Below are positions 2,233 to 63,407 of a DNA stretch of 64,000 nucleotides, piece after piece (the first letter of the stretch is position 1; every line of letters starts with the position of its first letter). The position numbers were made by a program, and so were the translations under genes. The notes beneath the pieces are model-generated. The model was not told the DNA's origin, ran no database searches, and saw nothing but the letters and a program-made list of their open reading frames with translations. Location: contig CAYPBP010000001.1 of NCBI GenBank assembly GCA_964408995.1, positions 10,823 to 74,822 of the forward strand, written 5' to 3'. This DNA comes from an uncultured Gammaproteobacteria bacterium. Its GTDB lineage: Bacteria; Patescibacteriota; Microgenomatia; UBA12405.

Positions 2233-2235
2233 ATT

Positions 2236-8959: not shown

Positions 8960-10565
8960 CAAAATACCATTAATAATTATTCTTCTAATTGCCTTTCTAA
9001 TTAGATTTATTAATTTAAACACTACTCCAGCCCTAAACCCTGATGAGGCCGCTCTTGGTTACAATGCTTATTCTCTTTTAGAAACTGGTAAAGACGAACA
9101 TGGAGACCCTTGGCCACTCCATTTTAAGTCTTTTGGTGATTTCAAACCGGGTGGCTATGTTTATTTAGCCTTACCTTTCGTTAAAATATTAGGGCTCACA
9201 CCATTGGCCGTCAGATTGCCAAATTTAATCTTAGCAGTATTAACCATCCTTTTTTTATATAAATTAATATTACTTCTCTCAAAATCTAACGCTCTAGCTC
9301 TCTTAAGCTCTATCGTTTTATGTTTATCTCCTTGGCACATTCATTTTAGTCGTGGAGCTTGGGAATCTTCGGCCGCTCTTTCCTTTATTGTTATTGGTAC
9401 CTATTTCTTTTTCAAATCAATTAAAGAAAAGTTTTTATTAAATTTTAGTATTTTTGTTATTCTTTACATCCTGTCTTTGTACATTTATCATTCAGCTCGT
9501 CTTATCGCTCCACTTTTAGCCTTTACCTTAGTTATTCTTTATTTTAAATTTTTGTTAACAAAACTTCCAAAAATATTAATCCCTATCATTTTTGGAATTA
9601 TTCTAGCCATACCAGTGGCTTTTTCATTTTTAAATAATGGTGGGACAAAGCGTCTCGGTGGAGTCGGGCTAACTGCCGATCAAGGTCCAATTTGGAGAGC
9701 TAATGAGCTTATAAACCATCATAATAATGTTAAGTTAATCAACAGGGGAATGCATAATAAAAGAATTTTATACTTAGTATCTTGGGCTCAAAAATATACT
9801 TCCCACTTTGATTTAAATTTTCTAGCAATTAATGGAGATGAAGTTCCTAGATCAAAAGTTCCTGAAATGGGCCAAATACATTTAATAGAATTACCATTTT
9901 TAATATTAGGTATTATATTTTTATTAAAAACTATTTTGTTTAATAAAAAATCCAAGATTTTTATCTTAGCCTTTTTATTAATATCTCCAATTGCCTCATC
10001 CTTAACTTTTCAAGCTCCATCAGCTCTTAGGGCCTTAGCCATGGTTATACCTATATCCATTTTAATTGCTAGTGGTATTTATTATTTCTTTACTTTATTT
10101 AAAAATAAAAATCTATTTAAGATAATTACTCTTATTTTTATAATCATTTATAGTTATTTTGTTGCCTATTATTTAGACGCTTATTTTGTCCATTATCCTA
10201 AAAGATATCCTTTTGCTTGGCAATATGGTTTTGATCAACTAGTTCCTTATCTAGAGCAAGAAAAAGATAAGTACAGTCAAATCTATGTAACTAATAAATA
10301 CGATCAACCTTATATCCTCTTTTTATTCTATTCTCAATATCCACCACAACTTATTCAATCACAAATAAAATTAACTCCACCAGATAATTTTGGTTTTTCT
10401 ACTGTTTTAGATTACAATAAATATCATTTTGAAAAAATTAATTGGGATAATATTCCATTAAATTCATTGGTTGTAACCAGTGATGAAGAAGCTCTTTTAA
10501 ATCCTTATAAAGTTATAAATTTCCCAAATGGCCAACCAGGGTTTAAAATATATTCAAAACAATGA
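8943..10565 (+). CDS. GT-C fold membrane glycosyltransferase (PMT_2/GT39-like), paralogue 6
   Basis: 540 aa; NPDEAALGYNAYS motif, clearly paralogous to 7319..8959; polytopic. Confidence 0.6.
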   Translation: MATKINKIPLIIILLIAFLIRFINLNTTPALNPDEAALGYNAYSLLETGKDEHGDPWPLHFKSFGDFKPGGYVYLALPFVKILGLTPLAVRLPNLILAVLTILFLYKLILLLSKSNALALLSSIVLCLSPWHIHFSRGAWESSAALSFIVIGTYFFFKSIKEKFLLNFSIFVILYILSLYIYHSARLIAPLLAFTLVILYFKFLLTKLPKILIPIIFGIILAIPVAFSFLNNGGTKRLGGVGLTADQGPIWRANELINHHNNVKLINRGMHNKRILYLVSWAQKYTSHFDLNFLAINGDEVPRSKVPEMGQIHLIELPFLILGIIFLLKTILFNKKSKIFILAFLLISPIASSLTFQAPSALRALAMVIPISILIASGIYYFFTLFKNKNLFKIITLIFIIIYSYFVAYYLDAYFVHYPKRYPFAWQYGFDQLVPYLEQEKDKYSQIYVTNKYDQPYILFLFYSQYPPQLIQSQIKLTPPDNFGFSTVLDYNKYHFEKINWDNIPLNSLVVTSDEEALLNPYKVINFPNGQPGFKIYSKQ

Positions 10566-11386
10566 AAAACAAAAAAAATACTATTTCAGTTGCTATCGCT
10601 ACATATAATGAAGAAGCTAATATTCAAAAGTGTTTGGAAGCCCTAGATTGGGTAAATGAAATTGTTATTGCTGACGGTGCTTCTCAAGATAAAACCATAG
10701 ACATAGCTTCTAAATTTAACAATGTAAAAATAATTAAAACTACCAATAAGCCAATGTTTCATATTAATAAAAACATTGCTATTGATGGCTGTACTGGTGA
10801 TTGGATACTTCAACTCGATGCTGACGAGATAGTCACTCCAGAACTTAAAGATGAAATAATTTCTTATCTTAAAAAGGATATTAATAAAGTAAAAGAAAAT
10901 GCTTTTTGGGTTCCTCGTCAAAACTATTTTTTGGGTTCTTTTTTAAAAAAAGGTGGTCAATATCCTGATCCAACCATTAGATTTTATAAAAATGGTAAAG
11001 CTAGACTTCCTTGTGTTGATGTCCATGAACAAGCCAAAGTAGAAGGGGAGATTGGTTGGTTAAAAAATGATCTTGAGCATTACGCCGACACTTCTTTTTC
11101 CAAATATCTTCTTCGTCACAATCGATATACCACTCTCTTGGCCCAAGAACTACAACAAAAAAACACAAAAATAAACTTTATAAATGCTATAAACTTTTAC
11201 TTTTTCAAACCAAATTGGTGGTTTTTCAAAACCTTTTTCCGACACCGTGGTTATGTTGATGGTTTTCCTGGTTTTGTCTTTTCTTTTTATTCTGCCCTAA
11301 GATTCCCAATTACTTATACTAAATTTTGGGAATTAACCAAAACCAATCGTAAAATTGATTTAAAAAATGATTGGGACAAAAAATAA
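10562..11386 (+). CDS. glycosyltransferase family 2
   Basis: VAIATYNEE...DGASQDKT...QLDADE motifs of GT-A/GT2; ATGA overlap with upstream gene. Confidence 0.65.
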   Translation: MKNKKNTISVAIATYNEEANIQKCLEALDWVNEIVIADGASQDKTIDIASKFNNVKIIKTTNKPMFHINKNIAIDGCTGDWILQLDADEIVTPELKDEIISYLKKDINKVKENAFWVPRQNYFLGSFLKKGGQYPDPTIRFYKNGKARLPCVDVHEQAKVEGEIGWLKNDLEHYADTSFSKYLLRHNRYTTLLAQELQQKNTKINFINAINFYFFKPNWWFFKTFFRHRGYVDGFPGFVFSFYSALRFPITYTKFWELTKTNRKIDLKNDWDKK

Positions 11387-12483
11387 TGTCTAAAAAAATA
11401 AAAATAGCTATTGATATTTCTCCAACTCTTGATGGCAATGCTCTTCGAGGGGTTGGTTATTACACTTCAAATTTAATCACTGCTCTTCAAAGCGAAGTTA
11501 AAAATAATCCTGATTATAAAGATTGGTCAATAAAATTAATCAAAGACTGGAAATTAGAAATTGGAAATTATAATTTAATCCACTATCCTTACTTTGATCC
11601 CTTCAAATTAACTCTACCCAAAAAAAGTAATCTTCCCACTATAATTACTGTTCATGATTTAATCCCTATCGAGTTTAAAAAACATTTTCCTGTTGGTATT
11701 AAAGGTTATTTAAAGTGGTTAATTCAAAAAAATAGATTATTAAAAGTTGACAAAATATTAACTGTTTCTAACTATTCAAAAAATATTATTAATCAAATCA
11801 CTAAATTTAAATTAAGTAATATTTTCGCTACTCATTTAGCTGCTGATTCAAGTTTTAAACCTTGCAATAATATAAATAAATTAAAAGAAATTAAAAAGAA
11901 ATATAAATTACCATCAAAATTTGTCCTCTTTGTTGGTGATATTAATTGGAACAAAAATATTCCAACTTTAGTAAAAGCTTGTTTAAAATTAAAATATCCA
12001 TTAGTTATAGTTGGGTCTTCTGCTACTAAAAAAGATGTCCCTAATCATCCTTGGACTCAAGATTTACTTTGGCTCCAATCTAAATCTAGAGAACCAGAGC
12101 TCCAGCGCACCAAGAAACTAATTCTTACTGGCTTTGTATCTGACGAAGAGTTACCTTTTATTTTTAATTTAGCAACTATTTATTGTCAACCATCATTTGC
12201 CGAAGGGTTTGGATTACCTCTTGTTCAAGCCATGCAATCTGGCATCCCAATCGTTTACAGCCAAGATTCTTGCCTTAATGAAATTATGGACTCTAATGGT
12301 CTAAAATTTAATCCATACTCTCAAAAAAGTTTAGAGAAAGCTTTAAATCAATTTTGGCAAAGTGGAACTCTTCGTCAAAAATATGCCCAACTTGGTTTAG
12401 TTCGCGCTAAAAATTTTAGCTGGAAAAAAACTGCTCTTCAAACACTTGCCCTTTATAACTTGACTCTTTTAAATGAAAAATAA
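11386..12483 (+). CDS. glycosyltransferase family 4 (GT-B)
   Basis: C-terminal EGFGLPLVQAMQSGIPIV motif; track start 11371 is TTG, first ATG at 11386 overlapping upstream TAA (TAATG). Confidence 0.6.
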   Translation: MSKKIKIAIDISPTLDGNALRGVGYYTSNLITALQSEVKNNPDYKDWSIKLIKDWKLEIGNYNLIHYPYFDPFKLTLPKKSNLPTIITVHDLIPIEFKKHFPVGIKGYLKWLIQKNRLLKVDKILTVSNYSKNIINQITKFKLSNIFATHLAADSSFKPCNNINKLKEIKKKYKLPSKFVLFVGDINWNKNIPTLVKACLKLKYPLVIVGSSATKKDVPNHPWTQDLLWLQSKSREPELQRTKKLILTGFVSDEELPFIFNLATIYCQPSFAEGFGLPLVQAMQSGIPIVYSQDSCLNEIMDSNGLKFNPYSQKSLEKALNQFWQSGTLRQKYAQLGLVRAKNFSWKKTALQTLALYNLTLLNEK

Positions 12484-22094: not shown

Positions 22095-22138
22095 ATTTCA
22101 TTCTACCAAAAATTTTCTTTTACTACTTCTCTATTTAT

Positions 22139-23122
22139 CTAAATTTCTAATGATCTAAACAACTCTCCAAGCTTCTCTTCACTATGCCTCAACCTCATAT
22201 TCGATTCATCTATTGTTGCCAAGTCAACTTTTATTGTTTTGACTGGACAAAGCATGTCTTTTTCTACCAATAGTGAATTCTCTAATTTATAAAAATAAAA
22301 GACTTTCTTTAATAATTTTTTATCCAAATCAGCTAAATCAGCCATAATTATCAGATCAAAAGGGGTTTTATTTCTTAAATATTTTTGAAATATTTCTAAA
22401 TAACCATTTTGACTAGCTTTTTTAACTTCATTACCAGTAGAAAAAATATTAACCAAAAATATCTTCTTAGCCTTACTTTTATTAAAACTTTCTACAATTC
22501 CATCAGGTAAAAAATTAGGTAATACCGATCCATAAGTCGTCCCAGGCCCAATTATAATCACATCAGCATTCTCTATTATCTCTTTTGCTTTTTTATTTGC
22601 CTCAACTTTTGGAGATAACCAAATATTATCAATTTTATCCAAAGACATTCTTAAATCATCAATAAAATTTTCTCCCTTATATTCCTTGCCACTGATAGTA
22701 GTAAAACAAACATTTGATGGTTTTAAAGACACTGGAATAACTTCTCCGCAAAGTTTAGCCCCAGTCAAACTAGAAAACAAATCATCAATTTCACCCAAAT
22801 TACCTTCTTTTTCTGACAAAAATTGCAAAAATATATTTCCAAAGTTTCTATCCCTGCCATCTCTAAATCTAAGCATATCTTGCCAAATTTCTTTTTGTTT
22901 TCCATCATCCCAAAGCGAAATCAAAGCTCTCCAATAATCAGAAAAAGCCAAAAGTTTTCCTCTTTCATCAGTTCTCATCCGACCAGTATCTCCACCATTA
23001 TCAAAAGTTGTCACTATTGATTTAATGTCCCTAAATCCTGCTTTAATCAAAGCTTTATTAACAATCGGCATTCCTGATCCACCACCAATAGTACAAACTT
23101 TAAGATTTTTATTCATAAACAT
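22139..23122 (-). CDS. YvcK/CofD-family protein (UPF0052, gluconeogenesis factor-like)
   Basis: VCTIGGGSGMPIV...TFDNGGDTGRMR...GNIFL...IIIGPGTTYGSVLPNFL motifs. Confidence 0.65.
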   Translation of the reverse strand: MFMNKNLKVCTIGGGSGMPIVNKALIKAGFRDIKSIVTTFDNGGDTGRMRTDERGKLLAFSDYWRALISLWDDGKQKEIWQDMLRFRDGRDRNFGNIFLQFLSEKEGNLGEIDDLFSSLTGAKLCGEVIPVSLKPSNVCFTTISGKEYKGENFIDDLRMSLDKIDNIWLSPKVEANKKAKEIIENADVIIIGPGTTYGSVLPNFLPDGIVESFNKSKAKKIFLVNIFSTGNEVKKASQNGYLEIFQKYLRNKTPFDLIIMADLADLDKKLLKKVFYFYKLENSLLVEKDMLCPVKTIKVDLATIDESNMRLRHSEEKLGELFRSLEI

Positions 23123-24125: not shown

Positions 24126-24237
24126 ATTTTTGTAAATTAATTCATTATACTAAAAAAATACTCCAAATCTTTAACTCTCTAACGCTCTATGTTAAAAACA
24201 ATAATCTAGTAATATTTTTTTCTGTTATCATGTATTT

Positions 24238-26462: not shown

Positions 26463-26539
26463 GTACTAATAAAAACAACCTCCTAGTAAATTGACCAGAC
26501 TACTAGCACACCAGAGCACTAACGTACTATAATGCATTA

Positions 26540-27340
26540 ATGCTTTCTCTTATCAAAGAAATAAAAGACATCTACAAATGGCGCGAACTATTATGGCAAA
26601 TGGTTGGCCGTGAAGTCAAAGCTCGCTACAAACAATCCATCCTCGGTTATTTCTGGGTTATCCTAAATCCACTAGCTCAAATGCTAGTCATGTCTTTTGC
26701 TTTCTCAATCATCATGCGAATTCCTACCAATTCAGCCAGCAATATTCCTTATTCTATTTTCCTTTTCGTTGCTCTTTTACCTTGGAACTTATTCACCGGT
26801 TCCCTTAGTTCAGCCGCTGGAGCCATAGTTGGAGCCGGTGGTTTAGTTACCAAAATTTATTTCCCTCGAACTATTTTAGTAATTGCCACTATCGTTGCTA
26901 AAATTATTGATTTTCTTTTTGCCAACATAGTCTTAGTTATTTATATGATTATTTACAACATACCAATCAATATAAATATTCTTTGGGTTATTCCAATCTT
27001 TTTTATTCAACAAATTTTCACTCTTGGTCTATCTCTTTTCTTTGCCGCCGCCAATCTTCTCTACCGAGACATTCAATACCTTTTATCAATGATTTTGCTT
27101 CTTTGGATGTATGTCACTCCAGTCATCTTCCCAGCCGATTTAGTCCCAGAAAGATACCGCTTTGTTTTCCAGATAAACCCTATGGCTGTCATTATTAATG
27201 CTTACAGGCAAGTAATTCTAGCTGGAGGTGTCCCTAAATACTCCAGTTTAGCCATCGCCATTGTCGTTTCTCTTATAACTCTTTTAATTGGCTTTAAATA
27301 TTTCAAATCTCGCGAAAAAATCTTCGCCGATAATATTTAG
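26540..27340 (+). CDS. ABC-2 type polysaccharide export permease (Wzm/TagG-like)
   Basis: WRELLWQMVGREVKARYKQSILGYFW signature; 6 TM helices. Confidence 0.7.
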   Translation: MLSLIKEIKDIYKWRELLWQMVGREVKARYKQSILGYFWVILNPLAQMLVMSFAFSIIMRIPTNSASNIPYSIFLFVALLPWNLFTGSLSSAAGAIVGAGGLVTKIYFPRTILVIATIVAKIIDFLFANIVLVIYMIIYNIPININILWVIPIFFIQQIFTLGLSLFFAAANLLYRDIQYLLSMILLLWMYVTPVIFPADLVPERYRFVFQINPMAVIINAYRQVILAGGVPKYSSLAIAIVVSLITLLIGFKYFKSREKIFADNI

Positions 27341-27341
27341 T

Positions 27342-27374
27342 CCTCTAGAACGCTGGTACTCTAGATCTCTAGAC
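27342..27374. repeat. degenerate period-8 array (ctctagNN)
   Basis: tcctctagaacgctggtactctagatctctagac; intergenic between the permease and the four-helix-bundle gene. Confidence 0.6.
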
Positions 27375-27409: not shown

Positions 27410-27775
27410 ATGAATTTTACTGATCTAAATATTTGGAAAGAAAGTAATAAATTAGCTATTACCATATATAAAATAACTAAAAATTTTCCAAAATCGGAAA
27501 TTTTTGGAATAACATCCCAACTACAAAGGGCTTCTACTTCTATTTCTGCTAATATTGCTGAAGGTTTCGGAAGGAAAGGCAATAAAGAATTTATCCAATT
27601 TTTATATCAAGCAAAAGGTTCTCTCTATGAAACTCAAAATTTTATACTTTTCAGCCGAGATATAGGTTATATTGAAAAATCAGAATCAGAAATTTTATTA
27701 AATCAATACGAATCATTAGCTAAAATGTTAAATTCCTTTATTACTAAGGTAAAATATAATAATGAAAACAAATAA
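27410..27775 (+). CDS. four-helix-bundle protein (PF05635-like, '23S rRNA intervening-sequence protein' family), copy 1
   Basis: 121 aa; LNIWKESNKLAITIYKIT...SQLQRASTSISANIAEGFGR motifs; sits between wzm- and wzt-like genes. Confidence 0.65.
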   Translation: MNFTDLNIWKESNKLAITIYKITKNFPKSEIFGITSQLQRASTSISANIAEGFGRKGNKEFIQFLYQAKGSLYETQNFILFSRDIGYIEKSESEILLNQYESLAKMLNSFITKVKYNNENK

Positions 27776-28553
27776 GGTGTCTAGCGAACCAGCGAACCAG
27801 CGAACCAGCGAACCAGACCAAATCGTTATACGATTTGGTCATGTTACCAAAGATTTTAGCAAACTCTCTCATAAAACCTTCAAAGAATTTCTTCCCGCTC
27901 TAATCAAAGGCGAAAAAACAGCTGAAAGTTTTACTGCTCTAAAAGACATTAGCTTTGAAATTAAAAAAGGGGAGACAGTTGGCATAATTGGTCCAAATGG
28001 CAGTGGCAAATCAACTATTCTAAAGCTCATTGCCGGCGTTATGTGGCCAACATCCGGAACAGTGCAAGTCAAAGGTAAAATCTCTCCTCTAATCGAGCTT
28101 GGTGCCGGCATGCATCCAGAATTAACTGGCAGTGAAAATATTTACTTAAACGGCGCCATTCTTGGTCTTTCTCAAAAAGAAATTGCGACCAATTACAAAT
28201 CTATTGTCGATTTTGCCGAAATTTGGGAATTTATCGATCAACCAATCAAACATTATTCTTCAGGTATGTATATGCGCCTTGCTTTTGCCATTGCCATTCA
28301 TGTCCACCCCGAAATTCTAATAGTCGACGAAATTCTATCTGTTGGTGATGCTGCTTTCCAAGACAAATGTTTCAAAAAGATGGAAGAATTTCAAAAATCA
28401 AAAGACATTACCATTATTTTTGTTACCCATGCTTTAGCTCAAGTCGAAAAATTCTGCACCCGCGCCATTTACATCAACAACCATCAAATCCAGTACGACG
28501 GCGATACTCAAAAAGCAACTAAAAAATATTTAGACGATCTAGAAAACAAATAA
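27762..28553 (+). CDS. ABC transporter ATP-binding protein (Wzt/TagH-like polysaccharide export ATPase)
   Basis: Walker A GPNGSGKST, signature YSSGM, Walker B ILIVDE; 5' end contains perfect octamer repeat. Confidence 0.75.
   Translation: MKTNKVSSEPANQRTSEPDQIVIRFGHVTKDFSKLSHKTFKEFLPALIKGEKTAESFTALKDISFEIKKGETVGIIGPNGSGKSTILKLIAGVMWPTSGTVQVKGKISPLIELGAGMHPELTGSENIYLNGAILGLSQKEIATNYKSIVDFAEIWEFIDQPIKHYSSGMYMRLAFAIAIHVHPEILIVDEILSVGDAAFQDKCFKKMEEFQKSKDITIIFVTHALAQVEKFCTRAIYINNHQIQYDGDTQKATKKYLDDLENK
27783..27819. repeat. perfect tandem octanucleotide repeat (agcgaacc) x4 plus partial copy, inside codons 8-19 of wzt-like gene
   Basis: ctagcgaaccagcgaaccagcgaaccagcgaaccagacc; translated SSEPANQRTSEPDQ. 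Confidence 0.9.
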
Positions 28554-28572: not shown

Positions 28573-29397
28573 TTATTTGAGCTTAATGGATTTTTTCTGA
28601 GATAAATAGTTTTTTTTAGAAACAATTGTTTTACCAAGTTCATTTTCCAGTTCTTTTCTGGCATTTCCAGCAATTTTACCACCTCTGTTCGCGTCACTTT
28701 TTAATTTGGGTACACCAATGGATTTTTCTTGGCGATGAATTTCAGTAGTAGACCTTTCTCCTAGCATAGTGAAGATCAATTCGAAATCATCCATATGATC
28801 TCTTAAATTTTCTCTTTTGATTCCTTTGAGTTTTTTATATTCAATTGGAGTTACTCCAAAAGTGGCTTTAGAAATTTCTGCAGTCAAAATTTCATAATCT
28901 TTTTGTTCTTTAGCACCTCGTTTTTGCCATTCGTCAGTTAATTCCTCGCGGATGGCAATACCACGCATTCTTTTTTCAATCCAACTTTCTGAATAACCTT
29001 TAGCTTGGTACAAGGCACGAGTTCGCTTGGTGGCTAATTCTGGATCTTCGATTTCTTGGACTCGTTCATAACCAACTTTTGCTAACCACATTTTAAATGG
29101 TTCAGCCTTAGGTGAGGGGATTGATTGAATAATTCTAAATATTCCTTCAGTATTAGCACAATCTGTAATATATTTTTTCCCATCTGATGATTCAAGTTTC
29201 AGTTGTCGACAAATTGTCGATAACTGAAATCCATCATCATTCTTAACTCTTATTTTCATTTTAAACCAATAATCGTTAGGATTGACACTATCAGTGAGTG
29301 ATTGAACTACATCCACAACTGAAAACCACCACTCATTTGAATAAATTGTTCTTCTAATTTTTTTACCTTTAAAAATTGCCAAATAATTGTTGTTCAT
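28573..29397 (-). CDS. Bro-N domain protein with DinD-like C-terminal region, copy 1
   Basis: Bro-N pattern (KKIRRTIYSNEWWFSVVDV...NTEGIFRIIQSIPSPKAEPFKMWLAKVG); near-identical paralogue at 52925..53746. Confidence 0.6.
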   Translation of the reverse strand: MNNNYLAIFKGKKIRRTIYSNEWWFSVVDVVQSLTDSVNPNDYWFKMKIRVKNDDGFQLSTICRQLKLESSDGKKYITDCANTEGIFRIIQSIPSPKAEPFKMWLAKVGYERVQEIEDPELATKRTRALYQAKGYSESWIEKRMRGIAIREELTDEWQKRGAKEQKDYEILTAEISKATFGVTPIEYKKLKGIKRENLRDHMDDFELIFTMLGERSTTEIHRQEKSIGVPKLKSDANRGGKIAGNARKELENELGKTIVSKKNYLSQKKSIKLK

Positions 29398-50328: not shown

Positions 50329-50410
50329 CGTATTTTTAGGTCTAAATTTGAAATGTAATGCCAAATTTTGCCTAAAAATACAATCCCGCAACTGCGGGAT
50401 GATATCCTCT

Positions 50411-50440
50411 CTCTAAAGTTCTAACCATCTAAAGTTCTAT
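50411..50440. repeat. degenerate period-8 array (tctaaagt/tctaacca/tctaaagt/tctattat) immediately upstream of ugd
   Basis: ctctaaagttctaaccatctaaagttctat; GC hairpin cccgcaactgcggg just upstream at 50385..50398. Confidence 0.6.
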
Positions 50441-50459
50441 TATGCTTTATAATATTCCT

Positions 50460-51888: not shown

Positions 51889-52932
51889 ATGAACAATAAA
51901 AAATTAATCATTCCGGAAAATTCTTTTACAGAATTTCTCTTATATACCACTCCAAATGAAAAAGTAAAAGTTGAAATCTTTTTACATAATGAAAATATCT
52001 GGCTTACTCAAGAAAAAATTGCTGGACTTTTTGATATAGAAAGAAGTGTTGTTACTAAACATCTACAAAATATTTATAAAGATAATGAACTTGATAAAAA
52101 ATCAACATGTGCAAAAATTGCACAAGTTCAAGTTGAAGGACAAAGAAAAGTTACTAGAAATATTGAATTTTATAATCTAGATGCAATTATTTCTGTTGGA
52201 TATAGAGTAAATAGTAAAAAAGCCACACTTTTTCGTATTTGGGCAACAGAAAGACTTAAAGAATATATTATTAAAGGTTTCACCATGGATGATGAAAGAC
52301 TAAAAAATCCTAATAATTTTTTTGGGCAAGATTACTTTGAAGAACAACTCGCCAGAATTAGAAATATTAGATCCAGTGAAAGACGTATGTATTTAAAAAT
52401 CACTGATATTTATGCTCAATGTAGTGCTGATTATTCACCAGAGAGTGAAATTACTAAACAATTTTTTGCAACCGTTCAAAACAAACTACATTTTGCTATT
52501 ACTGGAAAAACAGCAGCTGAGATTATTTCCCAAAGGGCAAATAATAAAAAAGTAAACATGGGTTTAACTGTTTGGAAAAATTCACCAAAAGGTATTATAC
52601 GTGAATCTGATGTTGTTGTTGCTAAAAATTATTTAAACGAAAAAGAACTTGACCAACTCAACCGCATTGTGACAATGTATCTTGATTATGCTGAAATGCA
52701 AGCCCAAAAAGGAATCATTATGTATATGAAAGATTGGATATCAAAGCTTAATGCTTTTCTAAAATTTAATGAACAAGAAATATTAAAAAACACTGGCAAT
52801 ATAAGTCATGAGGTTGCCCAAGCGTTAGCTTTAAAAGAGTATGAAAAATATAGAATACAACAAGATAAAAACTATATCTCTGATTTTGAAATTGCAGTAA
52901 AAAAACTTTTAGAAAAAAACAAAAATGAATAA
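51889..52932 (+). CDS. RhuM-family protein (PF13310-like)
   Basis: EIFLHNENIWLTQEKIAGLFD...YNLDAIISVGYRVNSKKATLFRIWATERLKEYIIKGF signature. Confidence 0.6.
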   Translation: MNNKKLIIPENSFTEFLLYTTPNEKVKVEIFLHNENIWLTQEKIAGLFDIERSVVTKHLQNIYKDNELDKKSTCAKIAQVQVEGQRKVTRNIEFYNLDAIISVGYRVNSKKATLFRIWATERLKEYIIKGFTMDDERLKNPNNFFGQDYFEEQLARIRNIRSSERRMYLKITDIYAQCSADYSPESEITKQFFATVQNKLHFAITGKTAAEIISQRANNKKVNMGLTVWKNSPKGIIRESDVVVAKNYLNEKELDQLNRIVTMYLDYAEMQAQKGIIMYMKDWISKLNAFLKFNEQEILKNTGNISHEVAQALALKEYEKYRIQQDKNYISDFEIAVKKLLEKNKNE

Positions 52933-53746
52933 TAACCATCTAGCCATTTTTAAAGGCAAAAAAATTAGAAGAACAATTTATTTAAATGAGTGGTATTTCT
53001 CAGTTGTGGATGTGATTGAAGCACTCACTAATAGTGTTAATCCTAACGACTATTGGTTTAAAATGAAAATACGAGTTAAAAACGATGATGGATTTCAGTT
53101 ATCGACAATTTGTCGACAACTGAAACTTGAATCATCTGATGGGAAAAAATACTCAACTGATTGTGCCAATACAGAAGGAATATTTAGAATTATTCAATCA
53201 ATTCCATCGCCAAAAGCCGAACCATTCAAACTTTGGTTAGCCAGAGTTGGTTATGAACGAGTTCAAGAAATTGAAGATCCAGAGTTAGCTACCAAAAGAA
53301 CAAGAGCCTTATATAAAGCCAAAGGTTATCCAGACTCTTGGATTGAAAAACGAATGCGAGGAATTGAAGTTAGGGAAACCCTAACTGATGAATGGAAAAA
53401 AAGAGATGTTGGTGGTGATCTTGAATATGCCATATTGACAGCCGAAATTTCTAAAGCCACTTTTGGAATGACACCATCTGAATATAAAGAATTCAAAGGC
53501 ATTAAAAGAGAAAATCTTCGAGATCATATGAATGATTTAGAACTAATTTTTTCAATGCTAGGTGAAGCTTCAACTACTGAAATTGCCAAGAATAAAGACA
53601 CTAAAGGATTTGTGGAAAACAAACAAGTAGCTAAAGAAGGTGGCACTGTGGCTGGCCATGCCAGAAAAGAACTAGAGCAAAAAAGCGGAAAAAAAGTATC
53701 AACTAAAAAAAATTATTTATCAATAAACAAAAATTACCTGAAATAA
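52925..53746 (+). CDS. Bro-N domain protein with DinD-like C-terminal region, copy 2
   Basis: about 80% aa identity to 28573..29397 product; 8-nt overlap with RhuM-like gene. Confidence 0.6.
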   Translation: MNNNHLAIFKGKKIRRTIYLNEWYFSVVDVIEALTNSVNPNDYWFKMKIRVKNDDGFQLSTICRQLKLESSDGKKYSTDCANTEGIFRIIQSIPSPKAEPFKLWLARVGYERVQEIEDPELATKRTRALYKAKGYPDSWIEKRMRGIEVRETLTDEWKKRDVGGDLEYAILTAEISKATFGMTPSEYKEFKGIKRENLRDHMNDLELIFSMLGEASTTEIAKNKDTKGFVENKQVAKEGGTVAGHARKELEQKSGKKVSTKKNYLSINKNYLK

Positions 53747-55966: not shown

Positions 55967-56008
55967 ATTTAGTTTAATAGATAAATAGATAAATAGTTTA
56001 ATAGATAA

Positions 56009-56374
56009 TCAATAACTACAACTTTTTACCTTTGTTAATAATGAGTTTAACATTTTTGCTACTTCTATTGATAAATTAACAAGTCTTTCAAATTCATCAT
56101 TATTAATATATTCCAAATCTCTCGATAATTCTAAAAAATACTGTGTTTCAGACAAAGAACCTCTAGCCTGAACTAAAAACTGAGCAAATTCTTTGCTTGA
56201 TCTTCTGGCATTACCTTCTACAATATTTGCTGGAACAGAGCTAGAAGCTCTTCTTAATTGAGAAATAATTCCAAACAATTCATCTTTTGGATATGTTTTA
56301 GTAATTTTATACACCTCTAAAGTATACTCGTGGGCTTTTTTCCAAACTAATATATTATGGTACAACACAAACAA
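56009..56374 (-). CDS. four-helix-bundle protein (PF05635-like), copy 2; non-ATG (TTG/GTG) start
   Basis: ILVWKKAHEYTLEVYKIT...SQLRRASSSVPANIVEGNAR; no in-frame ATG near the N-terminus. Confidence 0.55.
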   Translation of the reverse strand: MFVLYHNILVWKKAHEYTLEVYKITKTYPKDELFGIISQLRRASSSVPANIVEGNARRSSKEFAQFLVQARGSLSETQYFLELSRDLEYINNDEFERLVNLSIEVAKMLNSLLTKVKSCSY

Positions 56375-56407
56375 TTCTACTACTCAACTACTTATCTAAT
56401 CAACTAC

Positions 56408-57511
56408 TTATCTAATCTCTTCCCATGGATACTCTTCATACCCAAAATGCCCATATTTAGCTGTGTTTTTATAGATTGGTCTTTTTAAATCAAATTTATC
56501 AATAATTCCTTTAACTGATAAATCCATTAAATTCCAAGCAAAATCATTAATTTCTGACAAATCTTTTTTGGATGTTCCAAAAGTTTCAATTGATTTACAA
56601 ATAAGATCCCGAAGACCAATTACATAGGCCAATTGCACTTCACATCTATCGGCCAACCCTGCTGCTACAATATTTTTAGCAATATATCTGGCTGCATAGG
56701 CTGCACTACGATCAACTTTTGTTGGATCTTTTCCCGAAAAACAACCACCACCAATTCTGCCCATGCCACCATAAGTATCCACCACAATTTTTCTACCAGT
56801 CACTCCCGTATCTGATGCTGGACCACCAATTTCCCAAGCCCCAGTTCCATTAAAAATAATTTCTTCTTCTGTTAACTTGTTTAGATTATATTTTTGCAAA
56901 ACTGGTAAAACAGCCAAATTATATAAATCAGATTTAACTTTTTCTTTATCAACTTGAGGATCAAATGGTTTGGCTAAAACTATTTTTTCAATTTTAGAAA
57001 CTTTACCATTTTCGTAACTAACACTTACTTCTGCTTTTCCATCCGGTCTTAAATAATTTAATTCACCAAATTGAAGTTCATCCATTTTTTTACAAAGTTC
57101 ATGAGACAAAACAATTGGCAAAGGCATTAGTTGTGGCGTTTCATTACAAGCATAACCAAACATCATTCCCTGATCTCCAGCTCCATCATTATCTGCACCA
57201 ATAGCAATATCTTTTGATTGCTGATGAACTAAAACCTCAATATCTGCACTTTCATCAAAATTTAAAATTGGATCTGTGTAACCAATTTCTTTAATTACTT
57301 TTTTAGCAATTTCAATATAATCCAAACTTTGACTACAAGTAACTTCACCTGCCATCACTATTTTATTAGTTGTTACTAAAGTTTCCAAAGCTACTCTAGC
57401 ATTTTTATCAACTATTAAAGCTGCATCTAGAACAGCATCTGAAATTTGATCCGAAACCTTATCTGGATGACCACAACACACTGACTCTGACGTAAATAGG
57501 AGATAATTCAT
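56408..57511 (-). CDS. metK: S-adenosylmethionine synthetase
   Basis: FTSESVCCGHPDKVSDQISDAVLDA, GDQGMMFGYA, GGGCFSGKDPTKVDRSAAYAARY motifs. Confidence 0.85.
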   Translation of the reverse strand: MNYLLFTSESVCCGHPDKVSDQISDAVLDAALIVDKNARVALETLVTTNKIVMAGEVTCSQSLDYIEIAKKVIKEIGYTDPILNFDESADIEVLVHQQSKDIAIGADNDGAGDQGMMFGYACNETPQLMPLPIVLSHELCKKMDELQFGELNYLRPDGKAEVSVSYENGKVSKIEKIVLAKPFDPQVDKEKVKSDLYNLAVLPVLQKYNLNKLTEEEIIFNGTGAWEIGGPASDTGVTGRKIVVDTYGGMGRIGGGCFSGKDPTKVDRSAAYAARYIAKNIVAAGLADRCEVQLAYVIGLRDLICKSIETFGTSKKDLSEINDFAWNLMDLSVKGIIDKFDLKRPIYKNTAKYGHFGYEEYPWEEIR

Positions 57512-57714: not shown

Positions 57715-58938
57715 ATGAAAATCTTATTATTAAGCCACATTTTTCCACCTGCAATTGATGGTGGTTCAAAAGTAATTTATAAACTTGGTCAATATTTTGA
57801 ATCTCAAGACCATCAAACCCTTTATCTTTCTTCCAATTGCACCAGCACCGACGATTTTGTTAAAGCAAAAAATTATCGACAATCTAACAGCAACGATCCA
57901 ACCTCTCTTTTAAAACTTCCTGTCTATCACCATCTTCGTCGTCCACTAAAATTTTTAAACTTATTTTTAAAAAAAGATCTATTAAAAGTTTTTCAAAAAG
58001 GCCCCATTTTTAAATTTATTCCATTTATAAAAGCCACTTATCAAGTAATAAAATTCAAACCCGATTTAATTGTTGCCGGACCACTTCCCACCACCATAGT
58101 CCTCTACGCCAGATTTTTCAAATTTATTTCTAAAGCTCTAACACTCAAAAGTTCTAAAGTTCTAATCAATTCTTCTTTCCATCAAACTGATCAAGACTTT
58201 CAACAAAAATCCTTAATCAAATCTCTTCAAAATGCTGATTATCTTTGGACCTTAACTCAATTTGAAACTGATTACTTTATTAAAAATTTTAAAATTAACC
58301 CTCAAAAAATAATCCTCGCCGGCAATGGCATAGATAATAACTTCTTAGTAAGGTGCCCTGTCAAGGGAAAGGTGGTACGAAGTACCAAAGGGTTTAATAT
58401 CTTGTTTATAGGAAGCCTTGCTGCCCATAAACGCGTAGATCTTCTTATCAAATCTTTTTCTAAAGTTCTAAAGCTCTACAGCTCTAACCCTCTAACTTTA
58501 ACCATCGCTGGTCAAAAAACCCTCTTTTATCCCCAAATACAAAAAACCATAAAGTCTCTTCCCAAAAATATTCAAAAACAAATAAAATTTATTTTTAATT
58601 TTAAAGAATCAGATTTAGCCAAATTAATCGATAATTGCGATATATTAGTTTTACCTTCAGTCCAAGAAAGTTTTGGTTTAGTTCTCGTCGAAGCCTGGGC
58701 CAGACAAAAACCAGTTATTACTAGTGACATTCCATCATTGAAAGAATTAGTTTCTAAGACTAAAGGGGGATTAACTTTTAAAACTGATAACCAAAAAGAT
58801 CTTAGTCAAACAATTATTAAACTAATTAACAACCAGAAACTTTGCCACCAATTGGGCCAAAATGCTTTTGAATATGTTAAAACTAATTATACTTGGAAAA
58901 AAGTAGGAGAAAAAATATGTCAAAAAATATTATCTTAA
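57715..58938 (+). CDS. glycosyltransferase family 4 (GT-B) carrying the 47-nt element and two period-8 arrays in-frame
   Basis: NGIDNNF ... FNILFIGSLAAHKRVDLL ... SVQESFGLVLVEAWARQKPVITSD motifs; 15 inserted residues VRCPVKGKVVRSTKG encoded by the element. Confidence 0.6.
   Translation: MKILLLSHIFPPAIDGGSKVIYKLGQYFESQDHQTLYLSSNCTSTDDFVKAKNYRQSNSNDPTSLLKLPVYHHLRRPLKFLNLFLKKDLLKVFQKGPIFKFIPFIKATYQVIKFKPDLIVAGPLPTTIVLYARFFKFISKALTLKSSKVLINSSFHQTDQDFQQKSLIKSLQNADYLWTLTQFETDYFIKNFKINPQKIILAGNGIDNNFLVRCPVKGKVVRSTKGFNILFIGSLAAHKRVDLLIKSFSKVLKLYSSNPLTLTIAGQKTLFYPQIQKTIKSLPKNIQKQIKFIFNFKESDLAKLIDNCDILVLPSVQESFGLVLVEAWARQKPVITSDIPSLKELVSKTKGGLTFKTDNQKDLSQTIIKLINNQKLCHQLGQNAFEYVKTNYTWKKVGEKICQKILS
58129..58168. 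repeat. degenerate period-8 array (tctaaagc/tctaacac/tcaaaagt/tctaaagt/tctaatca) inside GT4 coding sequence
   Basis: translated FISKALTLKSSKVLINSS. Confidence 0.65.
58350..58396. repeat. 47-nt GC-rich hairpin element, copy 2 (identical to 5648..5694), translated in a different frame
   Basis: aaggtgccctgtcaagggaaaggtggtacgaagtaccaaagggttta. Confidence 0.85.
58459..58498. repeat. degenerate period-8 array (tctaaagt/tctaaagc/tctacagc/tctaaccc/tctaactt) inside GT4 coding sequence
   Basis: translated SKVLKLYSSNPLTL; the 'tctaa' unit is read in all three frames. Confidence 0.65.
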
Positions 58939-59372: not shown

Positions 59373-60384
59373 AAAATCCAGAGCACCAGAGCACCAGAGC
59401 ACCAGAGCACCAAATTTCTCCATAATCATTCCCAACTACAACGGTGCTCAATTTATAGCTGATTGTTTGAACTCACTTTATCAATCAATTCAAAATTGTC
59501 CCAATTCAGAATTTGAAATAATTCTTGTCGACAATGGATCTAAAGATAATAGTATTGAAATTTTTCAAAAAATAATTCCCAAAAATATTCACTATAAAAT
59601 TTTATTGAATTCTCAAAATAAAGGTTTTGCCCCAGCTGTTAATCAAGGCATAAATAAAGCCAAATATGAATATGTTGTCTTACTAAATAATGACTTAACT
59701 ATGGAACCTGATTGGTTTCAATTAATTTCTAATCAAATAAAAATTAATAAAGATCCAAAAATCACTACTTTCTTTGGCACAGTTTTGACTAAAGATGGCT
59801 CTAAATTTGAATCCCAAGGTTTAGAGTTTTTCTATTCTGGCAAAGCTCAAAATATCTCCAATGGCAAAGATTTTACCCCATCTACGACCTACGACCTACA
59901 ATCTACTAAACTAGTTTGGGGTGCTTCCGCCGCTCTAGTTGTTTACAAAAAAGAAACTCTAGAAAAAATTGGCCTCTTTGATGAAGATTTTTTTGCCTAT
60001 GAAGAAGATGTTGATTTGGCCCTGCGACTCCACAATTTAAACTATAAAACTCTTTATATCCCCGCTGCCATTTCCTATCATATAGGAGGCGGAACCAGCA
60101 ACAAAATGGGGATTTTTAGATACAAAATGGATGCTAAAAATTGGATTTACATTATAATCAAAAACTTTTCCAAAAAAGAAATAATAACTAATTTACCCAA
60201 AATTATAGAAGAACGATTAAGAAACTTATCTGGTTTAAGTAAGCAAACTATTCGTATTTATAAACTGAAATCAATTTTCTATTTACCATACATATTATTT
60301 TCTACTTACGGTGAAGTTTTAGTTAAACTACCAAAAATGTTTAACAAACGTAAATCTATCAAAAAACTTGATAGACTATGCTAA
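59365..60384 (+). CDS. glycosyltransferase family 2 with octamer repeat in its 5' end
   Basis: FSIIIPNYNGAQF...VDNGSKDNS...VLLNNDL motifs; N-terminal SRAPEHQSTRAP encoded by repeat. Confidence 0.65.
   Translation: MTKKSRAPEHQSTRAPNFSIIIPNYNGAQFIADCLNSLYQSIQNCPNSEFEIILVDNGSKDNSIEIFQKIIPKNIHYKILLNSQNKGFAPAVNQGINKAKYEYVVLLNNDLTMEPDWFQLISNQIKINKDPKITTFFGTVLTKDGSKFESQGLEFFYSGKAQNISNGKDFTPSTTYDLQSTKLVWGASAALVVYKKETLEKIGLFDEDFFAYEEDVDLALRLHNLNYKTLYIPAAISYHIGGGTSNKMGIFRYKMDAKNWIYIIIKNFSKKEIITNLPKIIEERLRNLSGLSKQTIRIYKLKSIFYLPYILFSTYGEVLVKLPKMFNKRKSIKKLDRLC
59378..59411. repeat. perfect tandem octanucleotide repeat (ccagagca) x4, codons 5-16 of GT2 gene
   Basis: ccagagcaccagagcaccagagcaccagagcacc. 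Confidence 0.9.
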
Positions 60385-60405: not shown

Positions 60406-60436
60406 TCTAGTGCTCTAAAGCTCTAAAACTCTAAAA
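60406..60436. repeat. degenerate period-8 array (gtgctcta/aagctcta/aaactcta) immediately upstream of GT4 start
   Basis: tctagtgctctaaagctctaaaactctaaaatATG. Confidence 0.6.
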
Positions 60437-61580: not shown

Positions 61581-62244
61581 CTATTACCAAAATAATTCAA
61601 ACAAATTTGGATGGGGGACTGATAATAAAATTTCTGATTACAAAATAAAAGAAATAATTCCTCATATTTCTGGTAAAAAAGTTCTTGATATAGGTTGTGG
61701 CCCAGGTCATTTGGTTGATATTTTGTCTAAAAAAGGTTTTGATTCTTTTGGTATCGATTCAACCCCTAGTTTTATTAACTATGCCAAAAAAAATAAAAAA
61801 GGTACTTTTAAAATTGGTAACGCCAATAAAACTCAATTTAAATCAAAAGAATTTGATACTGTAATTTTAAAAAGTGTTTTAGAACATTTAAAAGACGACA
61901 AAATAGCCCTAAAAGAAGCTCTAAGAATAGGTAAAAAAATAATCATAATTGTCCCTCAAAAAACTAGTTTTAAATTAAAAAAAAGAGGTTTAATTTACTC
62001 TCATTATCAAGACAAAAGTCATCTTAGAAACTACACCAAAAAATCATTAACCAAATTGATTAACTCTTGTAACGCTAAAATAATTAAATTAATCCCAATT
62101 GAACCCTTACCAATCAAATCCATCTTTTTTGAATTATTTATAGCTCCTAAATTACTAAAAAGAATAATCACAAAAATTTTCTTTTTAATTTTTAAACAAG
62201 AAAAATATTATTTAGAACTTTTAGTTATAATTAAAGCATGTTAA
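61555..62244 (+). CDS. class I SAM-dependent methyltransferase
   Basis: VLDIGCGPGHLVDIL motif I; about 100 aa later VLEHL. Confidence 0.6.
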   Translation: MSMSKPLTDYYQNNSNKFGWGTDNKISDYKIKEIIPHISGKKVLDIGCGPGHLVDILSKKGFDSFGIDSTPSFINYAKKNKKGTFKIGNANKTQFKSKEFDTVILKSVLEHLKDDKIALKEALRIGKKIIIIVPQKTSFKLKKRGLIYSHYQDKSHLRNYTKKSLTKLINSCNAKIIKLIPIEPLPIKSIFFELFIAPKLLKRIITKIFFLIFKQEKYYLELLVIIKAC

Positions 62245-63368
62245 TTGGTATTGATGGTAACGAAGCTAATATTAAAAACCGAGTTGGTGTTGGTCAATAT
62301 GCTTTTAATTTATTATTAAACATTTATTCCCTGGACAAAAAAAATAAATATATTATTTATTTAAAAGAAGAAGCCCAAGATGATCTGCCAAAAGCTAATC
62401 CTAACTGGCAATACAAAGTTTTTGGACCGAAAAAACTTTGGACTAAAATAGCCCTACCAATTAAATTGTTTACCCAATCAGATAAATTAGATTTATTCTA
62501 TTCACCTAGCCATTATTCACCATCTCTTTGCCCTTGTCCCACTGTTCCTACTATTCACGATTTAGGTTATCTTCAATCTCAAGATCAATTCACTAAAAAA
62601 GATTTATATCAATTAATCAATTGGACCGAAAAATCTCTCAAAAAATCCAGTCATATTATTACTGTTTCTAATTTTTCCAAAAACGAAATTGAAAAAATCT
62701 ACAAAATAAATCCTAAAAAAATTACTATTGCCTATAACGGAGTTAGTTCGCCACCAAAGATTGATACAAAAGATCAACAAAAAATCCTTTCTCTATACAA
62801 TCTTCAATCTAAAAACTATTATCTCTACTTAGGTACTCTTAAACCCAACAAAAACCTCCCATTTTTAATCAAATCTTTTTCTGAATTTATAAAAAAATCT
62901 AAAGCTCTAAAGATCCAAAGTTCTAACGTTCTAGTTATTGCTGGTAAAAAAGGCTGGCTCTTTGATGAAATTTTTAGTTGTGTCAAACAAGAAGGAATCG
63001 AAAACAATATTGTTTTCACTGACTTTATTGATGAATCTCAAAAGTGGACTTTGTATCAAAATGCTAAAGCTTTGATTATGCCAAGTCTTTATGAAGGTTT
63101 TGGTATTCCTGTTATTGAAGCCATGAAAGTAAACACTCCAGTAATTTCAAGTAATATTATCCCTTTAAAAGAAGTCCTTCAAAACAATGCTTTCTATTTC
63201 AACCCAACTAAAGAAAAAGAACTGATCGATCAATTAATCAAGTTTGAAAAACTTAATTCTTTAGGCATCAAAAAAATAACTGATAAAGCCAAGCTTAGGG
63301 CTGATTTTTTTAGCTGGCAAAACACTGCCAAATCAGTCATTTCTGTTTTTGAAAAATTTAAAAATTAA
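62238..63368 (+). CDS. glycosyltransferase family 4 (GT-B)
   Basis: MLIGIDGNEAN...; SLYEGFGIPVIEAMKVNTPVISSN. Confidence 0.6.
   Translation: MLIGIDGNEANIKNRVGVGQYAFNLLLNIYSLDKKNKYIIYLKEEAQDDLPKANPNWQYKVFGPKKLWTKIALPIKLFTQSDKLDLFYSPSHYSPSLCPCPTVPTIHDLGYLQSQDQFTKKDLYQLINWTEKSLKKSSHIITVSNFSKNEIEKIYKINPKKITIAYNGVSSPPKIDTKDQQKILSLYNLQSKNYYLYLGTLKPNKNLPFLIKSFSEFIKKSKALKIQSSNVLVIAGKKGWLFDEIFSCVKQEGIENNIVFTDFIDESQKWTLYQNAKALIMPSLYEGFGIPVIEAMKVNTPVISSNIIPLKEVLQNNAFYFNPTKEKELIDQLIKFEKLNSLGIKKITDKAKLRADFFSWQNTAKSVISVFEKFKN
62898..62935. repeat. degenerate period-8 array (tctaaagc/tctaaaga/tccaaagt/tctaacgt/tctag) inside GT4 coding sequence
   Basis: translated SKALKIQSSNVLV; same position in the GT4 fold as the array at 58459. 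Confidence 0.65.
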
Positions 63369-63377
63369 AATATAACT

Positions 63378-63407
63378 TTCTAATGCTCTAACCTTCTAAT
63401 GCTCTAT
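63378..63407. repeat. degenerate period-8 array (tctaatgc/tctaacct/tctaatgc/tctattta), intergenic
   Basis: ttctaatgctctaaccttctaatgctctattta upstream of acetyltransferase gene. Confidence 0.6.

Follow-up and report, generated by a model that had tools for sequence, protein, structure and literature searches.

Within the 64-kb stretch of contig CAYPBP010000001.1 that is analysed here (the window, to which all array statistics for the host refer), short tandem arrays of an imperfect 8-nt unit, TCTAAAGN, recur at separate places both inside glycosyltransferase genes and between genes, and the question they raise is what kind of element they are and how a single unit came to occupy so many sites. 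On balance we favour, though not strongly, the reading that these arrays are this genome's octamer "dialect" of a class of dispersed, genome-specific 7- to 8-nt arrays, of the type described as short tandemly repeated repetitive (STRR) sequences or long-unit simple sequence repeats (SSR). Probably they are repeats prone to slippage, with turnover at sites that tolerate indels, rather than working phase switches. Reports of dispersed heptamer arrays go back to 1990 for cyanobacteria, with Xanthomonas and Beggiatoa following later, and their mechanism, binding partner and function were never established. What would be new here is the extension of the class to bacteria of the candidate phyla radiation (CPR) and to a period of 8 nt, the residence of most arrays within open reading frames (ORFs) of a compact genome, where they form variable loops of conserved glycosyltransferases with the in-frame stop codon edited out, and the replacement of one unit and period by another at identical sites. 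The use of a different unit by each genome at shared sites suggests that the arrays are actively homogenised or seeded.

The unit of the window has the consensus T-C-T-A-A-(A>T>C)-G-(T/C/A) and a length of 8 nt, the arrays are 3.5-5 units long, and the TCTAA arrays, of which there are at least nine within the 64 kb, have a self-match of 70-93% in Tandem Repeats Finder (TRF). All seven arrays that the initial annotation had reported (those that begin at 27342, 50411, 58129, 58459, 60406, 62898 and 63378) were recovered with the same boundaries and in the same genetic contexts; members beyond that list begin at 22136, 24155, 12079, 26515, 55976 and 56379, together with a period-7 array at 59872. 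The arrays are given below, where GT2 and GT4 denote glycosyltransferase families and PF05635 a protein family with two genes in the window.

12079..12121, + strand: degenerate ACCAGAGC-type period-8 array within the GT4 ORF 11371-12483
22136..22160, + strand: weak TCTAA array of 3 units, in the usual + orientation, flanked by two genes of the minus strand
24155..24193, + strand: weak array of the CTCTAACG type ahead of an NYN-domain gene, at a distance of 45-83 nt
26515..26547, + strand: ACCAGAGC ACTAACGT ACTATAAT, running into a TATAAT box, 6 nt ahead of the ATG at 26540
27342..27374, + strand: intergenic CTCTAGAN array with one ACGCTGGT, upstream flank of PF05635 gene 1
27783..27816, + strand: perfect AGCGAACC x4.25, downstream flank of PF05635 gene 1; rotated, it reads ACCAGCGA and is stop-free
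50411..50440, + strand: TCTAAAGN array composed of CTCTAAAG TTCTAACC ATCTAAAG TTCTAT, 1 nt short of the ugd ATG (50442)
55976..56008, - strand: AATAGATA x4 (gene strand: ATCTATTT), abutting the epimerase ATG, downstream flank of PF05635 gene 2
56379..56417, + strand: ACTACTYA/TCTAATCA, period 8/16, upstream flank of PF05635 gene 2, overlapping the metK stop codon
58129..58168, + strand: 5-unit in-frame TCTAAAGN array in GT4 no. 1, aa 139-152, third unit TCAAAAGT
58459..58498, + strand: 5-unit in-frame TCTAAAGN array in GT4 no. 1, aa 249-262, third unit TCTACAGC
59378..59412, + strand: perfect CCAGAGCA x4.4, starting 13 nt inside the GT2 ORF
59872..59912, + strand: period-7 array ATCTACG/ACCTACG in a GT2 loop
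60385-60437: 53-nt AT-rich insert between GT2 and GT4 no. 2, containing the next array
60406..60436, + strand: 4-unit array, 1 nt short of the GT4 no. 2 ATG
62898..62935, + strand: 5-unit in-frame array in a loop of GT4 no. 3 (ORF 62238-63368), from aa 221, third unit TCCAAAGT
63378..63407, + strand: intergenic array of period 8/16, TTCTAATG CTCTAACC, upstream of a hexapeptide-transferase gene

The unit of the 27342 array differs from the TCTAA-type unit. The perfect tract at 27783 forms an N-terminal extension of an ATP-binding cassette (ABC) ATPase ORF, and the one at 59378 is a possible frameshift switch of GT2. At the junction of GT2 and GT4 no. 2, where the window has its 53-nt insert, two related loci, L081 and L083 (L-numbers are locus labels), have a stop/start overlap.

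The initial annotation had proposed a propensity of this genome for 8-nt tandem arrays, and the period-8 signal of the window is indeed well above that of shuffled sequence. When strict arrays are defined as at least 4 units with at least 75% self-match, period 8 yields 5 in the window and none in 20 order-3 Markov shuffles (the periods from 5 to 13 otherwise yield 0-1), and at 62% self-match the window holds 21 arrays as compared to 4.4 in the shuffles (shuffle maximum 8). The motif TCTAA occurs 173 times on the + strand, and successive copies lie 8 nt apart in 14 cases and 16 nt apart in 4, with every other spacing up to 30 nt represented 0-2 times and ~0.5 expected per distance. Its reverse complement TTAGA (109 copies in the window) never shows the 8-nt spacing, so that the window contains no arrays complementary to those of TCTAA. 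Period-8 density is 0.141/kb, as compared to 0.007/kb (~20x less) in 1.2 Mb of unrelated bacterial loci drawn from a MetK scan of GTDB genomes, a background in which TCTAA at 8-nt spacing was never seen. The TCTAA arrays share one orientation on the operon strand, even against local genes (22138 and 56379 in the window, 2279 in L288 and 3789 in L287), and the CTGAGAT arrays of L083 likewise all have one orientation. As a specific signature, TCTAAN3 repeated 3.5 times was rejected: a scan of viral contigs matched >120 of them, many labelled as giant-virus metagenome-assembled genomes, and the pattern is unspecific.

A G+C content of ~27% and many low-complexity TRF hits might suggest that the arrays are products of chance, or by-products of codon usage or amino-acid composition in an AT-rich genome. 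This explanation is refuted by the spacing statistics and by both shuffle comparisons, and the family recurs in independent assemblies; its probability is practically nil.

Units and reading frames at orthologous loci

Eight syntenic loci of related Shapirobacteria-like genomes were compared with the window. The array sites are restricted to gene junctions, N-termini and surface loops, where orthologues have their indel hot spots, namely in four loops of GT4 no. 1, at the N-terminus and in one loop of GT2, in a loop of GT4 no. 3 and, among the junctions, at the metK 3' end and in the gaps that precede the epimerase and hexapeptide-transferase genes. At orthologous hot spots there are short arrays with a unit that differs by genome, in some genomes a GC-rich hairpin insert, and in some nothing.

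L082, L287 and L288: TCTAACGN, with the TCTAA dialect common to L287 and L288
L081: ACCAGCGA / CCAGAGCA / CTAGCGAA, plus CTGAAAT
L083: CTGAGAT (7 nt)
L084 and L086: ATCTACR (7 nt)
L085, and L081 and L086 in part: either the GC-rich hairpin insert (core CCCTGTCAAGGG) or no filler

Thus the loop of GT4 no. 3 that holds the 62898 array in the window carries CTGAGAT heptamers in L083 and TCTAACGC units in L288, and the site of 63378 is filled by CCAGAGCA/CTAGCGAA in L081 and by 6 near-perfect TCTAACGY units in L288. The site of 59378 has TCTAAAGN units in L082, one CCAGCGAAC unit in L081 and none in L083 and L085, and that of 59872, in the GT2 loop, has CTGAAAT heptamers in L083 and the GC-rich insert in L081 and L085. 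At unit positions 5-7, the ratio of AAG to ACG is 11:1 in the window as compared to 4:10 in L082 (Fisher p=0.0017). The consensus of the unit is common within a genome and different between genomes at the same sites, i.e., the arrays exhibit concerted evolution. On the GT4 tree the filler types are scattered; the closest GT4 relative, in L084 (80% identity), has ATCTACR heptamers and lacks the region-1 array, whereas more distant genomes share TCTAA. More than local slippage is therefore needed, namely a seeding or homogenisation between sites.

The initial annotation had assumed that the two perfect octamer arrays are of one kind with the degenerate ones, and two observations uphold this. The window's perfect units, when rotated, are ACCAGCGA and ACCAGAGC, both stop-free, and an array of L288 (5011-5074) is a graded hybrid of TCTAACGT, TCCAAAAA, TCCAAAGC, ACCAAAGC, ACCAGCGA and ACCAGAGT. 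Since this one array passes from TCTAACGT to ACCAGAGT, perfect and degenerate arrays form one family.

Strict arrays lie inside ORFs in 7 of 10 cases in the window and in 12 of 17 in the related CPR loci, as compared to 33 of 213 on other contigs with PF05635 genes. All 3 coding arrays of the window begin in frame at TCT, and the unit is then read in 3 frames, such that a perfect tract would put TAA in frame at the third unit; the third units of the window are TCAAAAGT, TCTACAGC and TCCAAAGT instead. The in-frame TAA is gone in every coding array examined, i.e., the 3 in the window and those at 5 positions in L082, where the stop-avoiding units are TCCAACGC, ACCAACGT, TCCAACGT and TCAAAAAA. 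An alignment of 29 orthologues of GT4 no. 1 places both of its arrays exactly in indel-hypervariable columns, and in its AlphaFold model (mean predicted local distance difference test score, pLDDT, 86) aa 139-152 and 249-262 comprise helix end, loop and strand start; in two more hot spots of this protein, the loops at aa 51-61 and 216-222, pLDDT is <50. By alignment, the 62898 array falls at the position of the 58459 array, which bears out a structural equivalence suggested earlier. The array-encoded peptides are unconserved, and the units of other genomes encode unrelated peptides in the same loops; the periodicity is a DNA-level property and no protein repeat, in agreement with the initial annotation. 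Read from the sequence, TAA occurs in each of the three frames of a perfect TCTAAAGN tract, which could therefore never provide an open "ON" state inside an ORF.

A GC-rich hairpin mini-insert also occurs in the window, at 58345-58400, where the core CCCTGTCAAGGG is followed by GGTACGAAGTACC; it is an in-frame part of a GT4 loop, with "CPVKGKVVRSTKGF" as its peptide. Hairpin inserts of almost the same sequence occupy the same hot spots in L085, L086, L081 and L082, where they encode PALSREGFRKGF or PVKGxVxxGF. In other genomes such inserts are also found at the GT2 N-terminus and in intergenic gaps, and they resemble in-frame elements of the Rickettsia palindromic element (RPE) type.

PF05635 genes and their array flanks

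Two genes of the window belong to PF05635 (TIGR02436), the family of the four-helix-bundle "23S rRNA IVS protein" (IVS, intervening sequence), which is weakly Avd-like.

Gene 1, 27410..27775, + strand: 121 aa, between ABC-2 permease and ABC ATPase genes; E=2e-39
Gene 2, 56009..56374, - strand: 121 aa, between metK and the epimerase gene; E=7e-39

The two proteins are 53% identical. Solved homologues have five chains per entry, and the family is described as homopentameric (Lin 2006, as cited in PMC10053308 and PMC4990558). Each ORF is an insertion; L081, L083, L085 and L086 lack gene 2 at this place, a tblastn search for PF05635 homologues in L001-L086 found none, and L288 has an orthologue of gene 2 with the same flanks. 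Beside this orthologue, L288 (1-2340) carries a metK C-terminus fragment and epimerase fragments besides the intact genes, which indicates a duplication or rearrangement at the insertion site.

Period-8 arrays lie on both sides of each PF05635 gene of the window, among them the perfect AGCGAACC tract and the 27342 array, and the flanks, which may be moderately complementary, have duplex z values of -3.3 and -2.7 for the two genes; the arms of an IVS-type element would pair over ~25-30 bp. In the 23S rRNA IVS of Coxiella, an S23p (PF05635) ORF is preceded by 2-3 copies of GACAGAT, strain-variable in number, within a 28-bp stem that is cut by RNase III (PMC4990558). The window resembles the Coxiella and Leptospira IVS in having PF05635 genes with array flanks, which may have some complementarity, but its copies reside between protein-coding genes and not in rRNA, and its TCTAA arrays are solo, in a single orientation, with no PF05635 gene beside them. 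A PF05635 ORF of the IVS type accompanies the arrays at 27342, 27783, 55976 and 56379 and not the TCTAA arrays proper.

A metagenome scan with both PF05635 proteins of the window yielded 80 loci (34-56% identity, 27-61% G+C), in which array densities are 0.50/kb at period 7 and 0.11/kb at period 8, as compared to 0.023/kb and 0.007/kb in unrelated genomes (~20x). Period 7 dominates, with 162 arrays versus 45 at period 8, and the mode of the copy number is 4. The near flanks (at most 150 nt from the gene) hold 89 arrays in 23 kb, versus 120 in 294 kb farther off, and upstream and downstream arrays are reverse-complementary at z<-3 in 42 of 72 loci. An array is present in 55% of the gaps beside a PF05635 gene versus 33% of the gaps elsewhere on these contigs (p=0.0012), and, counting all gaps, in 43% on PF05635 contigs versus 2.3% in unrelated genomes. 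Because the excess beside the gene is modest and the array load is high on whole contigs, the link between PF05635 and the arrays is mostly one of co-occurrence at the genome level. In the literature searched, there was no paper linking PF05635 to dispersed arrays beyond the Coxiella IVS.

In several PF05635 contigs from other organisms (L222, L228, L261, L273 and L286), a 7- or 8-nt array is found at nearly every gene junction. The PF05635 gene of L222 lies between ORFs that, by translation alone, resemble a sigma factor and an anti-sigma factor, and L286 contains a hairpin pair of arrays with no ORF between them (1924-2032).

Known repeat classes and competing explanations

The initial annotation held that arrays of this kind belong to no described feature class, a claim that has to be abandoned, as dispersed, genome-specific short-unit arrays, with 2-6 copies close to start and stop codons, had already been reported (PMC4692102, PMC4679880, and the STRR of Calothrix), along with the heptamers of the Coxiella IVS (PMC4990558). 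Units of the class measure 5-11 nt, usually 7, and are joined head to tail. The Calothrix STRR and the GGGAATC/GGGGAYT heptamers of Xanthomonas and Nostoc show a preference for four units and lie at most 50 bp from ORF ends (Rehm 2015, PMC4692102). These repeats also occur in inverted pairs, hold corresponding positions in related genomes despite differences in length and sequence, and are G-rich, interpreted as G-quadruplex formers and under-represented in coding DNA (PMC4692102). The window arrays share with this class the repetition of a unit, its recurrence at dispersed sites, its specificity to a genome or lineage and a size of about four units; they do not share its intergenic preference, since coding DNA dominates in the window, although those copies that are intergenic do adjoin start codons. 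Formation of G-quadruplexes (PMC4692102) was discarded as an explanation for the window, as TCTAAAGN has at most one G per unit and cannot form a quadruplex.

The TAACTGA repeats of marine Beggiatoaceae, Cyanobacteria and Bacteroidetes occur as 2-6 tandem copies at many dispersed sites (MacGregor 2015, PMC4679880), mostly a few nt upstream of starts that lack a Shine-Dalgarno (SD) sequence, in "forward" orientation and with stops in all three frames; they are rarely found at ORF ends, and a repeat-binding protein, possibly mobile, has been proposed for them (PMC4679880). Like these, the arrays considered here have one genome-specific unit at many sites, copies that abut starts, some copies at ORF ends and a unit with stops in all three frames, and the heptamers of L081 and L083, (A/T)A(A/T)CTGA, resemble TAACTGA. 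Unlike these, the window unit has 8 nt and a CPR host, its copies lie mostly in ORF loops with the in-frame stop mutated, and sister genomes differ in the unit at each site. For heptamers, Mrazek 2007 had put forward slippage (cited in PMC4692102 and PMC4679880), and the Nostoc heptamers affect the expression of recF and recO, with the partner unknown (bioRxiv 10.1101/2022.06.06.494920). The literature searched contained nothing on CPR phase variation, on octanucleotide arrays or on such arrays in CPR bacteria.

As in the SSR of contingency loci, the unit length is not a multiple of 3 and arrays lie at the 5' ends of glycan genes and in promoter regions; a perfect tract with an open frame is found only at 27783 and 59378, and the TCTAA arrays are, unlike contingency SSR, imperfect, built on one unit across many loci and placed in internal loops. 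RPEs are fixed-length, palindromic small repeats that are inserted in frame into ORFs. The present arrays are comparable insofar as a small DNA repeat is tolerated in frame in surface loops and is variably present among orthologues, but they are tandem arrays, and the GC-rich hairpin inserts (58345-58400) are the closer analogue.

If the TCTAAAGN arrays are a genome-specific dialect of the STRR type, replication slippage would add and remove units, while short-patch recombination or a repeat-specific factor, for which the PF05635 pentamer would be the best candidate, would seed and homogenise arrays between sites. Selection would act as a filter only, removing the in-frame TAA, keeping lengths that preserve the frame and tolerating arrays only in permissive loops. 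The stop-free derivatives ACCAGCGA and ACCAGAGC may expand to perfect tracts at ORF 5' ends, those at the 5' ends of GT2 and the ABC ATPase could act as frameshift switches, and copies abutting SD-less starts might tune expression, by analogy with TAACTGA and the Nostoc heptamers.

A number of points weigh against this scheme. Slippage alone leaves unexplained the presence of one unit at many sites and the concerted change between 7- and 8-nt periods, and most of the arrays are within ORFs, while the described class avoids coding DNA. There is no close strain in the databases (the nearest GT4 being the one with 80% identity), so that copy-number polymorphism is unobservable. A role of the arrays as unstructured leaders was rejected: array-preceded starts fold at -3.7 to -6.4 kcal/mol, within the gene average of -5.3 +/- 3.3, and the expression role is therefore without support. 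As to the proposed factor, an intergenic-matched control leaves only ~2.5-fold enrichment of arrays beside PF05635 genes, and no TCTAA array adjoins a PF05635 gene, the link being through the shared period, related units and co-occurrence. A more far-reaching proposal, which we regard as unlikely, is that PF05635 pentamers are the partner of the dispersed 7- to 8-nt arrays, with ~4-5 units per pentamer, and constitute with their arrays a semi-autonomous system that inserts between cistrons, spreads its genome-specific unit to other sites or homogenises it there, and remodels junctions and glycosyltransferase surface loops in compact CPR genomes. The pentamer is a testable candidate partner; arrays flank PF05635 genes here and in most of the 80 other loci, and were the link true, an old open question would become directly testable by a binding assay.

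Among the rival explanations, the arrays could be operators or other regulatory binding sites, with one 8-nt unit per subunit of a DNA- or RNA-binding protein that coordinates the glycan genes. MetJ binds tandem 8-bp metboxes in this manner, and the omega repressor binds 7-bp heptads. A variant invokes a post-transcriptional factor, as proposed for TAACTGA (PMC4679880), and that proposal is itself a point in its favour, as is the effect of the Nostoc heptamers on recF and recO (bioRxiv 10.1101/2022.06.06.494920). The starts at 50442, 60438, 63428, 55966(-), 26540, 24238 and 27410 each have an array that abuts them or lies at most 80 nt upstream, nearly all genes lack an SD sequence, there are 4-5 units per array, and a genome-specific unit would be expected if it co-evolved with a binding protein. 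What makes this reading doubtful is that the majority of copies are in ORFs, in hypervariable loops, and that at the same promoters the unit differs or is absent, or is represented by the GC hairpin, in L081, L083, L085 and L086. Among the 20 ORFs of the window that were scanned there was no candidate regulator, and the promoter scan and folding energies were uninformative.

There are two further rivals. A family of miniature mobile insertions, similar to miniature inverted-repeat transposable elements or RPEs, that enter permissive sites in frame would account for presence and absence at orthologous positions (an 18-nt region-1 insert relative to L084 and L085, and the 53-nt insert at the GT2/GT4 junction), for the recurrence of identical filler peptides on distant branches of the GT4 tree and for the use of the same sites by GC-rich hairpin inserts. 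We find it quite unlikely, given flanks that show no terminal inverted repeats, target-site duplications or fixed length, a variable number of units, arrays that grade into their flanks and the lack of a transposase nearby. The other rival had been suggested by the initial annotation, namely that the arrays are decayed phase-variation tracts, formerly perfect 8-nt frameshift switches of glycosyltransferase genes that were locked by point mutations. Two perfect octamer tracts do lie 13-21 nt into ORFs (27783 and 59378), the genes concerned are surface-glycan genes, heptamer number varies among Coxiella strains (PMC4990558), and the L288 hybrid connects both kinds of unit. For the TCTAA units it is very unlikely all the same, as the stops in every frame of perfect TCTAAAGN leave no "ON" state, the same unit occurs at many unrelated sites, intergenic ones included, and 3-4 separate tracts in one conserved GT4 gene are implausible as switches.

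Host and gene context of the window

The surface-glycan cluster occupies 50-64 kb of the window and comprises ugd, an inserted RhuM/Bro-N pair, a flippase-like gene, the epimerase gene, metK, 3 GT4 genes, GT2, a DUF192 gene and a methyltransferase gene. GT4 no. 1 (57715-58938) has >100 orthologues at 60-82% identity, those with names being from Candidatus Shapirobacteria or Woesebacteria, and MetK has no relative at >60% identity among GTDB species representatives; the host is, to judge from these proteins, a poorly sampled CPR bacterium of the Microgenomates type. SD sequences are absent from almost every gene start, with GGAGG upstream only at metK, and many genes have a TATAAT-like -10 box ~6 nt ahead of the ATG, which suggests that leaderless mRNAs are widespread in the window. 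Scans of the window for tRNAs and Rfam families gave no matches, a promoter/terminator scan found fewer promoter-like sites than in shuffles, and an inverted-repeat scan returned AT-rich noise only.

Directly upstream of the array in front of ugd there is a terminator-like structure (50383-50400), a perfect 7-bp GC-rich hairpin (ATCCCGC AGTT GCGGGAT, minus strand) with a T-rich tail. The RhuM and Bro-N genes (51889-53746) are inserted between ugd and the flippase-like gene, where L081 has no such pair, and there is another Bro-N gene at 28573-29397 (-). RhuM 51889 and Bro-N 28573 are preceded by an almost identical segment of ~45 nt, "ttcggttttagtcattgacaagac..", with TTGACA and TATTAT boxes. 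At the other end of the window (544-10565), 6 successive ORFs of 540-573 aa on one strand, which overlap or abut at their ends, resemble a tandem series of paralogues.

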